7,248 nt of DNA, taken from the IMG/VR virus record IMGVR_UViG_2671180417_000024. The stretch is one strand, 5' to 3'. Positions 236 through 7,248 of the stretch are shown in pieces. Every line of letters starts with the position of its first letter. Position 1 is the first letter of the stretch. This stretch comes from a virus. Its lineage: Duplodnaviria > Heunggongvirae > Uroviricota > Caudoviricetes. The translations under genes were made by a program, and so were the position numbers. The notes beneath the pieces were generated by a model. The model did no database searches and had not been told where the DNA came from. It worked only from the letters and a program-made list of their open reading frames with translations.

Positions 236-451
236 AACCGCAGCACGTTCCTGCATACGACGTGTCTGCGGCATAATCCCAATGATTACTCCCTGACAGG
301 GTTTGCAGGCCACTCAATATCAGGTGCAGTTGATGTATCAACACGATTCAACAATACCCGATATTTATTCCATGCCTCCAGCAACGATCTTTCTTCCTCC
401 GTTGCGATTTCCAGATCTACAGCATCCTGCAGTGGCGCAATATACTCACTG
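236..451. repeat. Direct repeat copy A (3' end of the tfa-like ORF plus a degenerate copy of the hairpin), about 90% identical to 1286-1500
   Basis: Same alignment as copy B. The hairpin copy here (242-275) has lost perfect symmetry: CCGCAGCACGT versus ACGTGTCTGCGG with a 1-bp insertion. Confidence 0.85.
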
Positions 452-555
452 AATTCCTGGATGTAGAACTGTGTGGTGACGGTCTTCCAGCCATTCGGCT
501 CCTGCTGTATCGAAGCATACCAGGCTATTTCAATATCGCTATGCTGCGGCAGCAT
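286..555 (-). CDS. Short Tfa-like protein: novel 35-aa N-terminus fused to a conserved tail-fibre-assembly C-terminal segment (possible tfa remnant or alternative mini-chaperone)
   Basis: 89-aa ORF with SD-like AAGGGG 4 nt upstream of the ATG. The C-terminal ~51 aa ([51 protein letters not shown]) differ from the tfa C-terminus at about 5 positions; the N-terminus [35 protein letters not shown] is unrelated to tfa. Confidence 0.55.
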
Positions 556-563
556 TTAACCCC

Positions 564-592
564 TTGTAATTCATCGCCATAATTGATTTAAT
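564..592 (+). promoter_or_regulatory. Candidate sigma-70 promoter for the methyltransferase gene
   Basis: -35 TTGTAA (564-569), 17-bp spacer, extended -10 TGaTTTAAT (584-592), in a 56-bp AT-rich divergent intergenic region. Predicted start site near 599-600. Confidence 0.3.
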
Positions 593-611
593 TCACAAAT
601 AAAACTATAAC

Positions 612-1280
612 ATGGTGAAATCAATGAAAAAAAACACAGATGATGGGGCTAAAATTTACACACCACTTACCCTAAAGCTTTATGACTGGTGGGTTTTGGG
701 AGTATCAAATCGGCTTGCATGGGGATGTCCTACAAAGGAACACCTTCTTCCACACTTTCTGGAACATGTAGGTAACAACCATCTGGATATTGGTGTTGGA
801 ACTGGGTTTTACCTTACTCACGTACCTGAGAGTAGTCTGATATCTTTAATGGATTTGAACGAAGCTAGCCTGAACGCGGCATCTACAAGGGCTGGGGAAT
901 CAAAAATTAAACATAAAATTAGCCATGATGTTTTTGAACCTTATCCCGCGGCGTTACATGGTCAATTTGATTCCATTTCCATGTTTTACCTTCTTCACTG
1001 CCTGCCTGGAAATATATCTACAAAAAGCTGTGTAATACGCAATGCGGCGCAGGCCTTAACTGACGATGGAACTCTATACGGAGCCACAATTCTTGGCGAT
1101 GGAGTTGTGCACAATAGCTTCGGTCAAAAACTGATGCGCATTTACAATCAGAAAGGCATCTTTTCAAACACAAAAGATTCCGAAGAAGGCTTAACACATA
1201 TACTCTCAGAGCATTTCGAGAATGTTAAAACCAAGGTTCAAGGTACTGTAGTAATGTTTTCCGCTTCAGGGAAAAAATAG
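612..1280 (+). CDS. Class I SAM-dependent methyltransferase, substrate unknown (horizontally acquired cargo gene / moron)
   Basis: 222-codon ORF on the opposite strand to the tail genes. Motif I LDIGVGTGFY (GxGxG), downstream acidic LMDLNE and FYLLHCLPGN fit a Rossmann-fold methyltransferase. No DPPY/NPPF or PC-Q DNA-methyltransferase motifs. Visibly AT-rich with rare E. coli codons (AGG, CTA, ATA, GGA). The ATG at 612 has no SD; the in-frame ATG at 624 is preceded by GGTGA (614-618) and may be the true start. Confidence 0.85.
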   Translation: MVKSMKKNTDDGAKIYTPLTLKLYDWWVLGVSNRLAWGCPTKEHLLPHFLEHVGNNHLDIGVGTGFYLTHVPESSLISLMDLNEASLNAASTRAGESKIKHKISHDVFEPYPAALHGQFDSISMFYLLHCLPGNISTKSCVIRNAAQALTDDGTLYGATILGDGVVHNSFGQKLMRIYNQKGIFSNTKDSEEGLTHILSEHFENVKTKVQGTVVMFSASGKK

Positions 1281-1285
1281 CATCC

Positions 1286-1500
1286 AACCGCAGCACGTTC
1301 TTGCTTAAGACGTGCTGCGGCATAATCCCAATGATTACTCCCTGACAGGGTTCGTAGGCCACTCAATATCAGGTGCAGTTGATGTATCAACACGGTTCAG
1401 CAACACCCGATACTTTTTCCAGGCTTCCAGCAATGAGGTTTCTTCCTCCGTTGCAATTTCCAGATCTGCAGCATCCTGAAGCGGCGCAATATGCTCACTG
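1286..1500. repeat. Direct repeat copy B (3' end of tfa plus downstream hairpin), about 90% identical to 236-451
   Basis: Manual alignment of 1286-1500 against 236-451 gave roughly 21 mismatches and one 1-bp indel over ~215 bp, in the same orientation. Confidence 0.85.
1288..1320. terminator. Perfect 11-bp inverted repeat hairpin between the convergent tfa and methyltransferase genes (candidate bidirectional terminator / recombination junction)
   Basis: CCGCAGCACGT (1288-1298) and ACGTGCTGCGG (1310-1320) are exact reverse complements, with an 11-nt loop containing CTTAAG. It sits 7 nt after the methyltransferase stop and 14 nt after the tfa stop. On the minus strand a U-run (UAUUUUUUC) follows only after a 9-nt gap; on the plus strand there is no U-run, so terminator function is uncertain. 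Confidence 0.5.
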
Positions 1501-1919
1501 GCTACCTGCATCAGGTTGTTTTTTGTTTCTTCCGCCTCCCGGATCCGGAACAGTTTTTCTGCTTCCGTATCCTTCACCCAGGCTGTGCCGTTCCACTTCT
1601 GAAACTCCCCTTCCGGCGATAACCAGGTAACATTTTCCGGTAACGGACCGAGTTCAGAAATAAATAACGCGTCGCCGGAAGCCACGTCATAAACCGTTTT
1701 ACCCCGATGGTCTTCAAAGAGATGCCACGATGACTCATCACTGTTGAAAACAGCCACGAAGCCTGCCGGAATATCTAACGGTGCAATATCGGTACTGTTT
1801 GCAGGCAGACCTGTATGAGGCGGAATATATGCGCCACCTTCACCAATAAATTCATTAGTTCCGGCCAGCAGATTATAAATTTTTATGGTCCGTGGTTGTT
1901 CACTCATTCTGAATGCCAT
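1335..1919 (-). CDS. tfa: Tail fibre assembly protein (chaperone) Tfa
   Basis: 194-aa [50 protein letters not shown]…WPTNPVRE is near-identical to lambda Tfa as I recall it. Its ATG overlaps the stf stop as TAATG (position 1919 is shared). Confidence 0.95.
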
Positions 1920-4900
1920 TATGCAAGCCTCACAATATAGTTAAATGCGATGTTTTTGACGGTGTTTTCCGCGTTACCAGCAGCGTTAACGGTGATGGTG
2001 TGTCCATGTGAACCAATCGCAACGGAGTGCGCATGAGCACCAATTGGAACAGAGTGCGCATGGTTACCTGTAGTGCTTGTGGCACCAGACCAGGTTCTGG
2101 AAGCGTTAAAGTTTACAGGAACACCATAAGTAAATTGAGAGCCCGTAAATCCATGGGCTGGCGCAGAGCCACCCAGTGTAAATGCTCCACTTGCTGTATA
2201 GAAATTACCGCTATCACTTCTGAAGTAACCGAGAGTACCGGTAATTTCCATAGTGCCTCGGCTGTGGTTATGGTCACCAGTGGCATTTGAAGACTTAGTA
2301 CCATAATCAAACGACGACGTGGTTTTCGTCCCCAAATCCGTACTGGATGCACTGGCGCTGTGGGTGTGCGATTTAATGCCGTCCTGTTCCTGAGATAATA
2401 CGGCTCGACCACTGGCAGGTTTGCCCTTAATCGTCCAGCCACGCATATCAGGGATCACGCCTGACGGATAAGCAGCTGCAAGTTTCGGGTAAGCAGATTT
2501 GTCAAAAGTCTGCCCCTGCATCAGAGCATAACCAGACGGAACGGTATCTGATGGCCACGGGATTGGTGCGCCGACTGGGTAGCTTTCTGGTGGAAGATTT
2601 TTCGAGGTATAAACTTCTGCCCAGTCTTCCTCAAAACCATAACCGTCTCTTGAAGAACGGTAGAACAGACCACGATTTCTGTAATGCGCCTTCATCTGCA
2701 GGGTCCGGCAACTTCCGACTCCGGTATAGAAGTTAACCAGAATATAGCTGTCGCCAGAGCGGGTGACATTGTAAGCGCCTGATTCGGCATTCCAGGGAAC
2801 GGCTCCATCCGAATCCGCATAAGCCCCCGTCGAACGTCGGGCAAATGCACCAATATTTTCCGGCGTGAGGTTAATATCCGCCGAGCCATCAAACTTAACA
2901 CCGTTAATTTTTGGGACTGCCGCAAGTTTCGTCGCGGTATCGGCGTTCCCCTTCAGTGCCCCGGTGATCCCATCAGTAACAGACAACGGACCTGAAATAG
3001 TCCCTCCAGTCGTTGGCAGCGCTCCAATATCTGATGGTGTAGGTTTCTGATGTGAGCTATACATCGTATAAACAACACCACCGGTAACGCTGGAAGGCTT
3101 ACTCGCTGAATATGTTGGCGAGGTATAAATAGAAACTGACGCATTTGTAGTACAATCCCAATGGATATTTACACTCGTCGCATAATTGCCAATCTCAACG
3201 TAAATATCATATGTATCGCCGGATGTGTTGATCCAGGCGAAATTCGTTAATCCGACGGCTGTACGCTTCCACAAAGCTCCGGTAATCCCTTTGGGCTTTC
3301 CATTGCCTGCTCGTAGAACCAGTTCTGAAATGCCTGCCTGCTGTGGGGAGCCGACGTTGTAACCAGCGTCACCAATCAATGCGATGTAAACGATGGAACT
3401 CGCTTGTGGCATGGTAACCGTTGCCAGTTTGAACCACCCTGCCCCGCCAGAGAAAGAGATCGTTACTGAATTTAAAGTGCCAATATCTTTCGGTGTTAAT
3501 GTTATATCCGCAGTCAGTGCTTTCCCGTTAACTTTTCGGTTAGATGGTACCCTGCCATTCGCATTGTCATTCGCTGCTTTAACTGCCTTCGGTGTCGCGG
3601 CAAGCGTTTCAGATGTGCTGTTGGTTGCACTGCTGAGCTGTACTATCCCCTTTTTCGTCGTACTTGCATCCTCAAGCGCCACGGCGGATGCAATATCCTC
3701 TGCCCGTTTTGCCGCTGTCTCGGCGCGCGTTGCCGCGGATTCCGCCGTACTTTTGCTCTGTGCTGCCGCCGTCGCACTGCCAGTTGCCTCTGTCGCCTTC
3801 GTGGATGCTGTCGTGGCGCTGCCCTTCGCTGCTGACGCCTGTCTGGTCGCCTCATCTTTTGAAGCTGACGCCGATGATGCCGATGACGCCGCCGAACTAG
3901 CGGACGATGCGGCAGCCGTTTTTGAGGATTCTGCGCTGGTTTCCGACGCTTTCGCGTTCGTCTCGGATGTCTTCGCTGCGGAAGCAGACCTCGCTGCTGC
4001 ACTGGCCTGTTCAGTGGCTTCGCCAGCCTTCGTTGTGGCTGTTGAAGCAGACGAGGCGGCACTTTCTGCCGACTTTCCGGCAGCGGTGGCACTGGCTGAG
4101 GCCTGCCCGGCACTTGTTGACGCGGCACTGGCAGATAATGCAGCCGCTGTTTTTGAACCTGCCGCAGCTGAGGCGCTCTGTTCCGCTGCCGTCTCAGAAG
4201 ACTTAGCGTTCGTCTCGGACGTTTTTGCCGCCTTCGCAGAATTTGCTGTCGCCGTTGCCGAGGAAGCTGCGCTGCTGGCGCTCGAGGATGCATTCGTTTC
4301 TGAAGATTTCGCTGCCTCTTTTGAGGCCGCCGCACCCCGTGCCGAGGTGGCAGCTTCTGACGCCTTCGTGGTCGCTGTGGATGCAGAAGTGGCTGCCGAT
4401 TTTTGTGATGCTGCGGCATTCGTTTCTGACGTTTTCGCGGCACTGGCGCTGGTAGCTGCCGCGCTTTTTGATGACTCTGCAGCAGCAGCACTTTTTGCTG
4501 CTTCACGGGCCTTTGTCGATGCCGTTCCTGCGCTGGAAGACGCTGACTGAGCCGACGACGCGGCCTGTCCGGCTGACGTGCTGGCGGCACGTGCTGAGGC
4601 TGCAGCATCGGTTGCATGAGTTGCCGCCTCGCTGGCTGATGCACTGGCATCGCTGGCTGATTTTTTCGCGGCTGCCGTATTCTGTGCAACCGCGGAGGCG
4701 TTACGTGACACCTCTTCCACCATCTGCTCAAAGCGGCGCAGTGCCTCCGGTCGGACATCATCCTCCGTCATGGCACCGAGAAAATCATTCAGCGTACCTG
4801 GTCTGGAACCTTCATAGACGGTAATGGTCCCGGCATGTGAAGGCGGAAAACCTTCAACCAGCAGGGTGACGCTGTACTGACCATACTCGACGTCCATGCT

Positions 4901-5047
4901 GTAACGCCCTGCCTCATCCGGATTTTCAGAGGCCACCGTGTTCACCACCACCGTGCTGCTGGTTCGTCTGGCCTTCAGCACAATGGTGCAGTTCTGTACT
5001 GGTTTTCCTGTGCCATCTTTAAGCACGCCAGAAATTTTTACTGTCAT
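1919..5047 (-). CDS. stf: Side tail fibre protein (lambda Stf-like; mosaic with Ala/Ser-rich repeat shaft, phage-fibre repeat motifs and a T4 gp37-like HxH tip)
   Basis: 1042-aa ORF with SD GGTGGA 6 nt upstream of the ATG. N-terminus [28 protein letters not shown]…[14 protein letters not shown]…[13 protein letters not shown] matches the lambda Stf N-terminus as I recall it. Also present: conserved [24 protein letters not shown] motif and C-terminal GAPIPWPSD…[35 protein letters not shown]…[31 protein letters not shown]. Confidence 0.95.
3640..4710. repeat. Low-complexity, GC-rich coding repeats inside stf (Ala/Ser/Thr-rich shaft with recurring A-A-K-T/S-S-E-T-N-A units)
   Basis: Stf residues ~115-470 are almost entirely A/S/T/K/E, with the motif KTSETNA or KSSETNA occurring four times. 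The DNA shows recurring near-identical segments (e.g. ttcgtctcggatgtcttcgc, ttcgtctcggacgtttttgc, ttcgtttctgacgttttcgc). This is why long spurious ORFs open in several other frames here. Confidence 0.6.
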
Positions 5048-5198: not shown

Positions 5199-5798
5199 TC
5201 AGAAACGGTATCCGATACCAACAATAAATGCATCCGTTCGCCAGTCGCCACTGCCGGAGCCTTCATAAGCAATATCAATGGCCACGGATTCGGTCGGGTT
5301 AAACTGCACGCCAGCCCCCCACGCCAGAGACGTGTTGCTGTGGCGACCGTCATCACTTCCGGTCAGCACATCGTGCGTTTTCCCCTTGTTGTCAGTTACG
5401 CGGAGATAATCCCCGGAGAAAGTCGACACACGGCTGTAAGCCACACCCGCCATCGAATACGCGCTGAACCATTCATTCACGCGTACAGACGGCCCCGCCA
5501 TCACGCTGAACCAGCGGTTACGCACGGAATCTTCATGCCAGCGGGTATCGCTGTAATGCGTTTTTTGCTCATCTTTGGCATTGGCATAACTGAATGACGT
5601 CACCAGCCCCAGCGTGTCCGTAAATTCATAACGGTATTTCACGTTAATGCCCTTCAGGTCATCACTGCCTGGCATATCAGTATGGGTCTGAAGATACCCG
5701 GCGCTTAGTGTGGACTGATGCTCTGCTGCGCTCGCTGGCGTACCAGCGGCAACCAGCCAGACTACTGCGGACAGAATAACAGCACATAATTTACGCAT
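5199..5798 (-). CDS. lom: Lom-like outer membrane protein (Ail/Lom/OmpX/PagC family beta-barrel), with N-terminal signal peptide
   Basis: 199-aa ORF. N-terminus MRKLCAVILSAVVWLVAAGTPASA/AE looks like a Sec signal peptide. GINVKYRYE and the C-terminal AYEGSGSGDWRTDAFIVGIGYRF with terminal aromatic residue match lambda Lom as I recall it. SD GAGG lies 6 nt upstream of the ATG. Position directly downstream of J is as in lambda. Confidence 0.92.
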   Translation of the reverse strand: MRKLCAVILSAVVWLVAAGTPASAAEHQSTLSAGYLQTHTDMPGSDDLKGINVKYRYEFTDTLGLVTSFSYANAKDEQKTHYSDTRWHEDSVRNRWFSVMAGPSVRVNEWFSAYSMAGVAYSRVSTFSGDYLRVTDNKGKTHDVLTGSDDGRHSNTSLAWGAGVQFNPTESVAIDIAYEGSGSGDWRTDAFIVGIGYRF

Positions 5799-5865: not shown

Positions 5866-7248
5866 TCAGCTGATACTGATGCCTGCGGTGGCTTTCTTCA
5901 TCACCACAACCAGCAAATCGCTGATACTTGCTGTGGGATACCAGTTATTCACCAGCCATGCTGACACCGAAAACTCCAGCGTCATGTGACCGTGACCGGC
6001 AGGCATATCAATAACACCACTGTAAATCAGCGTATTATCCAGCGCGGTACGGTTATAAATTTCAGCACCGTTTTTCCGCACTATCAGACGGCATGAGGAG
6101 TAAATATCAGTATGCTCTCTCTCATGCTTAGCGCCACTGAATGCCACCGCCGGAATAACAATTTGCCGGTCAAACGGCTGATCGTCATAAACCCTGACGG
6201 TAATGGTCCCTGATGGCCACCGCTCCGGTGCACGGGAGTCCCGGGGGAAAGCTTTGCCCACTGTTTTAACGAGATCGCCTTCAATCTGGTTGGCGGACAG
6301 TTTTCCCAGAACCCGACAGTTCTCGTTAATCGTGACGTTGTTGAGCGTCCCGGAGTTCGCATTCACGTTACCGCTGATATCGGCATTTTTCGCCATCAGC
6401 CGCCCGTCCGGTGTCAGGGAAAATGCCGGAGGATTACCGCCGCTGGTAATGGTGGGAGCCGTCAGGTATTTCAGGAACACTTCGTTCATGAATATCTGAT
6501 CGCCCTGACCAACAAACATCGGCTTTGTGTTGCCATTCGCAGGATTAATCATCGCAATCCGGTCAGCAGCCAGAAGCACCTGACTCTGCATACCTGCTGG
6601 CGTATTCTCAATACCGGCTCCGATACCCGCAATATAAAGGCGTCCGTCCTTCATCTGCTGCAGTTTCACGGCCCACATGCTGTTCAGGTTATTATTTGTA
6701 TCAACCTGAACTTTCTGTATCTGCTGGATTGCCGCACTCTGGTCTTCCAGTTTTTTATTGACGGTCTGCGTGATTTCATTGCTGACATTCGTAATGGACG
6801 TCCTGATTTCAGCCAGGTCCGGCGCAAGCTGACCGTTATCAATCTGCGTCCACAGCTCCTGAGCCAGATGTGTTTTCCCGATTTCTCCTTTGAAAAAATC
6901 CAGGTAACCTTCCGCATCATCGCTCGCCCGACCGACAGCCTCCACGAATGCCGATTTGCCAACAGTATTCACACTGCGGATATAAAAATAATAATCATGG
7001 CCCGGTTTGATATTGATACTGGCAGCTATCCAGTACAGCGCCGAGCCAAGATAGCGGGCTGCGGTTTCAACCTGCCTGATATCCGCAATCCGCTTTTCCG
7101 AGAACCAGAACTCAAACTGTACCGTCGGGTCATAAACGGCAAGATGTGGCGTTGCGGTTATCTGAAAATAGCCCGGCGTCAGCTCAATCGTGGCGGGTAC
7201 CGCAGGTGCATTAATCCTGAACGTGGTGGTGGCCGGTTCCCCCTGCTG
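5866..7248 (-). CDS. J: Tail tip host-specificity protein J, C-terminal part (5' end of the gene lies beyond the right edge of the window)
   Basis: The minus-strand frame is open from 7248 down to the stop at 5866; I checked codon by codon that 6973-7248 has no in-frame stop, so the GTG at 6972 in the ORF track is not the real start. The translation (…[26 protein letters not shown]…[44 protein letters not shown]…) matches the lambda J protein as I recall it. Confidence 0.93.

Follow-up and report, generated by a model that had tools for sequence, protein, structure and literature searches.

Two tfa allele ends and a ybcY gene in a block probably exchanged among lambdoid phages by homologous recombination

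Why does the 3′ end of a tail fibre assembly gene (tfa) occur twice around a methyltransferase gene? The window analysed here is a stretch of 7,248 nucleotides from the right-hand end of a lambdoid prophage at ompW; it carries J, lom, stf, tfa, a methyltransferase gene (ybcY), the remnant of another tfa, and a DUF4376 pseudogene. The side tail fibre gene stf, which is partnered by tfa, lies at 1919-5047 (minus strand). According to the RefSeq annotation of the colinear locus of Escherichia coli 042, positions 1-235 are the prophage right-end flank with the remnant of a DUF4376-domain pseudogene (minus strand), and attR and a truncated ompW follow a few hundred bases further left. The repeats belong to an ordinary, already annotated tfa-ybcY-tfaX arrangement of E. 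coli lambdoid prophages. How common is it? Of 5426 complete E. coli genomes, 3433 (63%) cover at least 80% of window positions 300-800, which include the junction of the tfaX-like ORF (tfaX′) and ybcY, and 1113 cover at least 80% of the whole arrangement of 1-2000.

Two tfa allele ends in direct orientation

Local alignment of 236-451 with 1286-1500 in direct orientation gave 195 matches in 216 positions, with 20 mismatches and one 1-bp indel (90.3% identity). A first-pass annotation, which had counted about 21 mismatches by hand, was right about the coordinates, the orientation, and the identity of about 90%. The alignment score was 151, while 200 shuffles reached a maximum of 13, and a repeat-finding scan of the window also returned the pair. 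The two repeats are spaced 1050 bp apart, and the repeat edge is the base of a hairpin. On the minus strand, each copy consists of 55 codons and a stop codon (286-453 for the left copy, A; 1335-1502 for the right copy, B) followed by a stem-loop, much as the earlier description of the last 50 or so codons, a stop, and a hairpin had it. The coding part of copy A (about 286-452) is a relic of the Tfa C-terminal domain without the fibre-binding N-terminal domain and is 90% identical to 1335-1500. Its non-coding part (236-285) has a stem-loop with an "A-type" loop at 238-271 after the stop codon, and the non-coding part of copy B (1286-1334) has a stem-loop with a "B-type" loop at 1288-1320.

Both copies cover positions 75-130 of the 131 positions of the Pfam profile PF02413 (Tfa / Caudo_TAP), and both have the conserved C-terminal helical domain of this family. 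Tfa has been described as a protein in which a variable N-terminal domain binds the fibre and a conserved C-terminal domain mediates trimerisation (PMC9608196, citing North 2019). The repeats are the 3′ ends of two different tfa alleles, each with the C-terminal helical domain, the stop codon, and the terminator hairpin. Copy B, on the right, lies in the working tfa of the lambdoid prophage. This full-length gene (1335-1919, minus strand; PF02413, E = 2e-44) encodes a complete Tfa of 194 aa with the N-terminal fibre-binding domain, and its last 55 codons (about 1335-1500) are copy B. Residues 126-191 match the C-terminal part of the Mu Tfa chain 5YVQ_B.

The longest identical tracts between the copies are 39 bp and 38 bp. 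The dN/dS between copies A and B is 0.16, and the 3′ end of the phage lambda tfa is 89.9% identical to copy B. Thus, the 10% divergence is an older allelic difference and gives no date for the event. The first-pass annotation had taken it as a sign that the duplication is not recent. That argument falls away, since the difference is allelic and the block described below is nearly identical to that of free phages.

A chimeric ORF at the left copy

The left ORF (286-555, minus strand) encodes 89 amino acid residues and is equivalent to K-12 tfaX (PHROG 2341; E = 4e-61 for residues 1-88). Its DNA is colinear with tfaX of the DLP12 prophage, with the same fusion point, the same N-terminal sequence, and the adjoining ybcY gene. 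The first 38 residues are 100% identical across 12 phage records. This ORF, like K-12 tfaX, is a chimera of two parents. About 36 codons at 452-555 are the start of a phrog_3893-type small phage gene (minus strand), including an ATG of its own and the ribosome-binding site AAGGGG. A tblastn search with residues 1-38 led to phrog_3893 (E = 8e-6), residues 3-37 match PHROG 3893 (E = 3.3e-7), and BLASTP gave 53% identity over 36 aa. Relatives of the fragment include HK225 gp28 and an ORF of Klebsiella phage Kp4882-3, and the phrog_3893-type gene of phage Ayreon continues past the fusion point. The similarity to copy B stops at 451/452, while the phrog_3893 protein homology reaches 445. The in-frame fusion point with the Tfa C-terminal domain (minus strand) was therefore placed at 445-452, where CTCACTG is common to both parents. 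This inner edge of the left copy is thus an old illegitimate in-frame fusion and no tfa/tfa junction.

The left copy had been described as the end of a tfa-type gene. Its Tfa C-terminal domain, stop codon, and hairpin agree with that description, but the ORF starts as a phrog_3893-type gene and is not simply a shortened tfa. A complete Tfa protein has a variable N-terminal fibre-binding domain and about 175-200 residues; the left ORF product has 89, of which residues 1-36 derive from phrog_3893. In the colinear E. coli 042 locus, PGAP labels the ORF as a pseudogene with a "missing N-terminus". Probably, the phrog_3893 gene originally adjoined ybcY, and its first 36 or so codons were later fused in frame to a tfa end, which left a dead remnant known in K-12 as tfaX.

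Three other assignments were tried and rejected. A full-length tfa parent for 452-555 was sought among 5.8 billion proteins, and all close relatives start at the same MLPQH. In one genome, a PGAP pseudogene label places a DinI fragment antisense to 457-536; the plus-strand translation has no NCBIfam match, and I take the label for an annotation artefact. As for membership of ybcY or tfaX′ in a defence system, PADLOC gave just one meaningless weak match (E = 0.009).

Probable exchange of a block within the Tfa C-terminal segment

Mismatch maps and a per-segment table delimited a donor-type block of about 1.05 kb, from 346-1354 at minimum to 344-1454 at maximum. It contains the proximal part of copy A, the phrog_3893 fragment, ybcY, hairpin B, and the distal part of copy B. 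Phage PhiR26_1 shares it at 99.7% identity, differing at 3 of 1111 positions in 344-1454 and then at 9 positions in 1455-1572. The Fisher comparison set 3 differences in 1049 positions of the block against 36 in 666 positions of the flanking tfa (about 5%; p = 2e-12). The outer flanks (1-345 and 1356-1668) resemble a different set of sequences; they match empty alleles of the same ompW prophage, which lack the block, at about 99.4%. Compared with the empty allele of strain 190693, there are 3 mismatches in 1-345 and 1 in 1356-1668, versus at least 13 in 346-460 and 7 in 1301-1355. The nearest relative changes at 306-346 and at 1355-1455, as at the mosaic joints of lambdoid phages; the base-by-base comparison covered about 15 loci, and the right-hand breakpoint was placed on small counts (1 to 4 mismatches in 1395-1500). 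The flank 1-235 has 0-1 mismatches to filled and empty alleles alike.

Other loci have other ends. Phage 2G7b breaks at 331 and 1455, joining another fibre module, and further left-end classes lie at about 300-302, 308-309, 331, and 526 on other backbones. In HH97, the left copy has been converted to the other allele type. In the window itself, the part of the tfa body at 1669-1900 belongs to a third allele. Thus, the backbone itself is mosaic and there is no single "recipient".

The empty alleles lie at the same ompW site and have the same DUF4376 pseudogene flank. Two synthetic deletion products were used as queries; the 901-nt query merged both pieces of filled loci, and the 416-nt query separated them. 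Twenty records have full one-piece coverage of this 416-nt junction probe. Variants lacking 452-1285, with one tfa that has a hybrid 3′ end, had been predicted in the first-pass annotation, and they do exist at ompW prophages.

Since both ends of the block lie inside the repeat, the cassette probably travelled by homologous exchange within the 3′ end of tfa. I consider it likely that two tfa allele ends, ybcY, and the phrog_3893 fragment form one block which has spread by homologous recombination in the segment encoding the Tfa C-terminal domain. The DNA of this segment is conserved in many lambdoid phages, and it would therefore act as portable homology. The block of about 1.05 kb would hop between phage backbones with both exchange points within the segment. 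In the present case, a block of the PhiR26_1 / 2G7b / DLP12 type would have come to reside in a backbone type that is also known without it, and the single tfa 3′ end of the recipient would have been split between both copies. The first-pass annotation had attributed the cassette to recombination between tfa alleles of different phages. Two alleles do lie side by side and the block behaves as an exchangeable one, but the inner left edge is the phrog_3893 fusion.

A precedent is the work of De Paepe et al. 2014, in which a cassette flanked by tail-fibre homology, about 10% diverged, enters a lambdoid phage by two exchanges (PMC3945230). In the same study, lambda acquires marker cassettes from Rac and Qin via stf/tfa homology, Rad52-like phage recombinases are the documented agents of such exchanges, and on short, diverged sequences Red-beta outperforms RecA (PMC3945230). 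That study used engineered markers and measured frequencies, whereas the exchange described here is read from natural mosaics; moreover, both exchanges here fall within a single segment of 216 bp, of which the donor has two copies. The exchange agent was probably a Rad52-like phage recombinase rather than RecA. The first-pass annotation had named RecA for recombination between the two copies, and RecA is a poor candidate at 10% divergence.

Was the block gained in this lineage or lost from others? I lean towards a gain. However, insertion by two exchanges mirrors deletion by one, and therefore the empty alleles may have arisen by deletion and need not be of the recipient type. On this alternative, which is doubtful but has a real chance of being true, the filled allele is ancestral and the rare single-tfa alleles arose by recombination between the repeats, with the crossover in the 39-bp tract (307-345 = 1357-1394). 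The empty alleles show the hybrid expected from it, being of copy-A type in 236-306 and of copy-B type from 346. The two longest identical tracts are where a crossover is expected, and filled alleles far outnumber empty ones (1113 genomes versus about 20 clear cases). On the other hand, there is no empty allele whose flanks are near-identical to those of a filled one. For the PigCaeca_2 empty allele, the nearest filled matches reach about 96.5% identity, and the best empty match to the synthetic deletion product of the window is 96.4-96.9% identical. Thus, no recent event is visible, and the deletion-product probes found no recent deletion derivative among the 5426 genomes. Nor does deletion account for the contrast between the block, at 99.7% identity to free phages, and the flanks, at about 95%. 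The question of deletion concerns the direction alone and is compatible with the spread of the block by homologous recombination.

Could the left repeat have been kept because the 89-aa tfaX′ is a working gene? For example, the C-terminal domain made by a lysogen could enter mixed trimers with an incoming Tfa. The ORF is intact, it has an ATG and a good ribosome-binding site, identical 89-aa proteins form large clusters, and the unit is present in 63% of genomes. In K-12, a sigma-70 promoter has been reported to face tfaX (PMC3946193). These points are outweighed by the C-terminal end, which varies with the context (truncations or foreign tails of 61, 82, and 101 aa, and a split ORF in 2G7b), by the pseudogene call of PGAP, and by the lack of a meaningful PADLOC match; the position beside the ybcY promoter explains the retention. 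Selection for a working tfaX′ is thus very improbable. A bolder form of the idea, to which I would give slightly less credence still, is that TfaX′, with its phrog_3893 N-terminal piece joined to the Tfa trimerisation domain, is a lysogen-expressed decoy whose mixed oligomers poison the Tfa of superinfecting or co-resident lambdoid phages, and that it forms with ybcY a two-gene module spreading via its own coding homology.

It is highly improbable that the tfa 3′ end was duplicated locally in tandem and diverged in place, with the cargo inserted afterwards. The direct copies, 1050 bp apart, and the repeat ending exactly at the hairpin base would suit such an event. The dN/dS value, however, indicates divergence under selection on both copies, which is not expected for a dead duplicate. 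The mosaic contradicts it as well: the proximal half of copy A has the same sequence as the tfaX of unrelated phages, and its distal half matches the resident allele. In addition, copy A is fused to a foreign gene at its inner edge.

Invertible segments typically have alternative tfa copies next to a fibre gene, and a phrog_3893 gene of HK225 adjoins a DNA invertase. As in the invertible segments (Mu G / P1 C / e14 P; Gin, Cin, Pin), a second, partial or alternative tfa lies near stf-tfa. In those systems, however, the copies are inverted and accompanied by an invertase, while the copies here are direct, no recombinase gene is present, and the block ends coincide with ordinary homology tracts. 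The window contains no invertase, and no transposase, terminal inverted repeats, or target duplication around 452-1285; since these defining features are absent, a remnant of a Gin/Cin/Pin-type invertible or site-specific fibre-switching cassette, or a transposon insertion, can be rejected with near certainty.

Related loci, the ybcY cargo, and the hairpins

The K-12 DLP12 genes tfaD-ybcY-tfaX (b0561-b0563) have the same order and orientations, and window positions 309-1773 are colinear with them at 96.8% identity. Both direct repeats and the chimeric tfaX start are shared. In K-12, ybcY is a pseudogene and tfaD is truncated at the N terminus, whereas ybcY and tfa are intact in the window. The homology of K-12 tfaX ends at window position 309, where appY and ompT follow. 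In contrast, the left copy in the window has the complete C-terminal domain, the stop codon, and the hairpin, beyond which come the DUF4376 pseudogene and, at ompW, the end of the prophage. The temperate phages PhiR26_1, 2G7b (Nesevirus), ev243, Turner, and Kati carry ybcY and share the block at 99.3-100%. Left of window position 331, these phages have a hydrolase gene and ompT, not the rest of the Tfa domain. In 2G7b, the right copy too is reduced to a fragment of 40 codons, which meets a different fibre module at 1455.

The locus is a clean natural case of a principle already understood. Lambdoid phages and cryptic prophages use the conserved C-terminal tfa segment and the terminator as shared homology when they swap fibre modules and accessory genes. 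This accounts for the second "tail fiber assembly protein, partial" next to a methyltransferase in most E. coli genomes. The natural pair of filled and empty alleles can be used to measure repeat-mediated gain and loss of a moron.

Morons of lambdoid phages are genes of lower G+C content that sit between conserved genes and bring their own promoter and terminator. The cargo shows a distinct composition, a promoter-like site, the hairpin at 1288-1320, and presence/absence polymorphism. The G+C content is 40% in 556-1285, 48-52% in the flanks, and 50% in 452-555, and the AT-rich cargo and the adjoining stretch of normal G+C had been noticed correctly at first pass. The ybcY gene (612-1280, plus strand) encodes a class I SAM-dependent methyltransferase of 222 aa as called (Pfam Methyltransf_12/23/25/11; PHROG 2132, E = 4e-157), although its true start is probably the ATG at 624. 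It is at least 99.3% identical in 14 sequenced phages. The structure-level similarity of YbcY to UbiG and JHAMT is weak.

In the spacer between the divergent ybcY and tfaX′ (556-611), TTGATT-17-TATAAC can be read at 583-611, and a scan gave a promoter-like site starting at 556. The same promoter pair and H-NS binding were found by genomic SELEX at the K-12 ybcY/tfaX spacer, the data being in-vitro binding of RNA polymerase and H-NS (PMC3946193). The ybcY gene may be expressed from its own sigma-70 promoter as a moron. Like morons, ybcY (41% G+C) is encoded on the other strand from the late operon, has a promoter-like spacer of its own, ends at a hairpin, is placed between the last tail gene and the attachment site, and has filled and empty alleles. 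In HK225, the same slot is occupied by dinI on the opposite strand. Unlike a classic moron, ybcY is framed by a partial duplication of a neighbouring gene, and this repeat frame is a by-product of how the block travels.

The stem-loops just beyond the stop codons are stable. For the minus-strand RNA fragments around them, the folding energy is -29 to -30 kcal/mol (z-scores -3.7 and -4.35). As for other structured RNA in the repeat, the sole Rfam match was IS009 inside the tfa coding sequence, which I read as a family built on tfa fragments. A simple scan found a terminator-like site at 255-239 on the minus strand, flagging hairpin A alone and not B. Hairpin A is likely to be the terminator of the late tail operon. 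Hairpin B was rejected as a canonical intrinsic terminator; neither strand has an adjacent U-run. It lies 7 nt past the ybcY stop codon and 14 nt past the tfa stop codon and is common to both convergent genes. Among alleles, the variation of the hairpins is confined to the loop and one bulge position, and in the alleles compared the B-type hairpin is always tied to the 3′ end of ybcY.

Gene order and the repeated Tfa segment

From the ORFs and Pfam matches in the window, the gene order was read as the C-terminal part of the tail-tip protein gene J (5866-6972), lom (5199-5798), the side tail fibre gene stf (1919-5047) and tfa (1335-1919), all on the minus strand, a class I SAM-dependent methyltransferase gene on the plus strand (612-1280), and an 89-aa minus-strand ORF (286-555, hereafter tfaX') that matches the Tfa family in its C-terminal part only. 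E. coli 042 has a colinear locus, 99.3% identical to the window. This comparison places the window at the right end of a lambdoid prophage whose insertion site is ompW, next to yciE and the trp operon; immediately to the left of the window, the 042 annotation has a DUF4376 pseudogene and the end of the prophage. RefSeq also has a 45-aa "hypothetical protein" in E. coli 042 at 1225-1362 (minus strand), across the methyltransferase gene 3′ end, the right hairpin and the tfa stop codon, and this call is very likely spurious. The centre of stf (3600-4760) is Ala/Ser-rich with a G+C of 0.58-0.65, and its 26-nt repeats (families D2 and D3) lie multiples of 21 nt apart; the long other-frame ORFs at 3393-4550 (plus) and 3643-4761 (minus) look like by-products of composition. 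At the stf 3′ end, a tandem 27-nt repeat (1997-2050, minus strand) codes for repeated His-x-His motifs (22 residues).

The first-pass annotation had reported direct repeats of about 215 bp and 90% identity, and local alignment gave the same ends: 236-451 (copy A) and 1286-1500 (copy B) are direct repeats of 90.3% identity, with 20 mismatches and one 1-bp indel against 195 matches. Their alignment scores 151, and none of 200 shuffles scored above 13. Its reading of the composition was also right, as G+C is 40% in the AT-rich cargo region (556-1285), 50% in 452-555 and 48-52% in the flanks. Both copies hold 55 codons and the stop codon of a Tfa-type frame on the minus strand, with a strong computed stem-loop directly beyond the stop. 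Across alleles the stem is invariant and the loop varies, a pattern that would fit a terminator of the late operon; the copy B hairpin is common to tfa and the convergent methyltransferase gene.

In the 131-position Pfam Tfa profile, the repeat covers positions 75-130, and in the solved Mu Tfa chain it matches the C-terminal part. Tfa chaperones are described as modular in PMC9608196, which cites North et al. 2019: the fibre is bound by a non-conserved N-terminal domain, and trimerisation is driven by the helical C-terminal domain, which is conserved. The conservation extends to the DNA level, since the lambda tfa 3′ end with its hairpin is 89.9% identical to copy B. Short pieces of the Tfa C-terminal segment also persist in many lambda-like phages without annotation. 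Phages 2E9, 4A7, ev087, ev203 and others have a 58-bp relic of about 95% identity, equivalent to 1398-1455; scars of this segment are thus common. Between copies A and B, dS is 0.38 and dN/dS is 0.16. Thus, the 10% difference built up when the copies were still functional alleles of different phages, and it says nothing about the date of joining, although it had been taken as a sign that the duplication is not recent. The Rfam family RF02111 ("IS009") has a full-length match at 1378-1576 (minus strand; 225 bits against a gathering score of 117), which falls wholly within the reading frame of tfa and partly in copy B. This family seems to derive from pieces of the tfa gene and not from a genuine small RNA.

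The left copy and its phrog_3893 part

The left copy had been described as the end of a tfa-type ORF. It does contain the Tfa C-terminal segment, but tfaX' is a chimeric pseudogene whose 5′ part is of phrog_3893 type, not a simple tfa end; PGAP annotates it as a tail-fibre assembly pseudogene without an N terminus. The first 36-38 residues match the N terminus of phrog_3893, another small phage protein family (HMM, E = 3.3e-7 for residues 3-37). The N-terminal part of tfaX' also matches an ORF of Klebsiella phage Kp4882-3 (tblastn, E = 8e-6), shows 53% identity over 36 residues in BLASTP, and is more weakly similar to gp28 of phage HK225. A search for a full-length Tfa with the 5′ part of tfaX' found none, and the close relatives all start at MLPQH. 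Phage Ayreon has a decayed phrog_3893-type gene that, after the position at which the window turns into Tfa sequence, remains colinear with the family (E = 3.5e-14, 54% identity over 50 residues). The fusion point lies at 445-452, in frame, and only the heptamer CTCACTG is common with the tfa parent. Every tfaX-type sequence examined has the fusion, which is an old illegitimate joint.

In HK225 (locus L009, 1691-3408), the order is tail fibre, tfa, dinI on the opposite strand, gp28 (phrog_3893) and then a DNA invertase. It is likely that this is the original layout of fibre, tfa, opposite-strand accessory gene and phrog_3893 gene. The accessory gene is ybcY, the methyltransferase gene, in the window and dinI in HK225, and the slot appears to be a general site for such genes. 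In strain SCEC020023 (locus L011, 4150-4229, about window 457-536, plus strand), PGAP calls, on the strand opposite the tfaX' 5′ part, a "DinI family protein" fragment with a frameshift. Its plus-strand translation has no NCBIfam match, and the label is probably a naming artefact linked to the HK225-like dinI and phrog_3893 neighbourhood.

Filled and empty alleles

Empty alleles, with a single tfa and no cargo, were sought with a 416-nt synthetic probe for the deletion product. It detected prophages that share the ompW site and the DUF4376 pseudogene with that of the window; 20 records covered the probe fully in one piece (91.8-96.4% identity). In these prophages, one full-length tfa is followed directly by the A-type hairpin and the left flank, and its 3′ end is of copy-A type at 236-306 and of copy-B type from 346 onward. 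Thus, the predicted variants lacking 452-1285 with a single hybrid tfa 3′ end do exist. No recent deletion derivative was visible among 5426 genomes. In phage Ayreon (locus L002, 2888-3041), a deletion of 659 bp (window 586-1244), whose joint has a 4-bp overlap, has removed ybcY except for the last 36 nt of the ORF; only a C-terminal fragment of its upstream tfa remains, directly after a different stf.

Base-by-base mismatch maps and a per-segment table were used to define the transferred block. Compared with phage PhiR26_1, the window has 3 mismatches in 344-1454, 9 in 1455-1572 and many more beyond. From the empty strain 190693 allele it differs at 3 positions of 1-345 and at 1 of 1356-1668, but inside the block at 13 or more positions of 346-460 and at 7 of 1301-1355; the 1669-1900 region is a third allele. 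Block and flank mismatches are 3/1049 and 36/666 (Fisher p = 2e-12). Thus, the window is an empty-type backbone with a block of about 1.05 kb (minimum 346-1354, maximum 344-1454). Both block ends lie inside the Tfa C-terminal segment, in or near the longest identical tract of the repeats (39 bp, 307-345 = 1357-1394), and the single tfa 3′ end of the recipient is divided between copies A and B. The idea of a module-exchange junction through tfa homology is therefore supported and made more precise.

Other alleles show that exchanges happen in this segment. In phage 2G7b, the block meets an unrelated fibre module at positions 331 and 1455, and left ends in other backbones fall at about 300-302, 308-309, 331 and 526. 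The empty allele of 2023CK-01509 has the same 3′ end joined to a different tfa/stf. In strain HH97 (locus L012, 1837-2052), the tfaX' relic has copy-B or empty-allele bases at 10 of the 15 A-versus-B sites in 346-444, including all of 346-389, which points to gene conversion by a full tfa allele.

The repeat, the chimera, the identity breakpoints and the two allelic states are direct observations; the block itself would travel by homologous recombination, in which its two partial segments of the Tfa C-terminal region are the arms. A direct experimental precedent is that lambda picks up marker cassettes which had been put into the stf/tfa homology of Rac and Qin (PMC3945230). In that study, Red-beta dominates on short, diverged substrates, and 12% divergence costs only about 100-fold in the lytic cycle, while a divergence of 4% lowers RecA-type recombination in E. 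coli much more. Thus, deletion between the copies is possible, as had been proposed, but RecA is not the likeliest agent. Since insertion by two exchanges and deletion by one give the same sequences, either direction is possible in this lineage.

The ybcY gene and its distribution

The name YbcY comes from a phage annotation. The protein is predicted to be a generic class I SAM-dependent methyltransferase, weakly similar to UbiG and juvenile-hormone methyltransferase structures, and it had no defence-system match. TTGATT-17-TATAAC lies at 583-611 in the ybcY/tfaX spacer; the same K-12 ybcY promoter was reported by genomic SELEX, together with a divergent tfaX promoter and H-NS binding in the spacer (PMC3946193).

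The trio tfaD, ybcY and tfaX is found in the cryptic prophage DLP12 of the K-12 reference, colinear with 309-1773 at 96.8%, although ybcY is a pseudogene there. Of 5426 complete E. coli genomes, 3433 cover at least 80% of the tfaX'-ybcY junction (300-800), and 1113 cover at least 80% of the whole 1-2000 arrangement. The ybcY genes of 14 sequenced temperate phages have an identity of at least 99.3%. The arrangement is thus already annotated in K-12 and present in most E. coli genomes. E. coli Nissle 1917 (locus L010, 2903-5885) has a DLP12 remnant at tRNA-Arg consisting of an integrase fragment, a tfa fragment, an intact ybcY and ompT, with the tfaX' side trimmed to window position 526.
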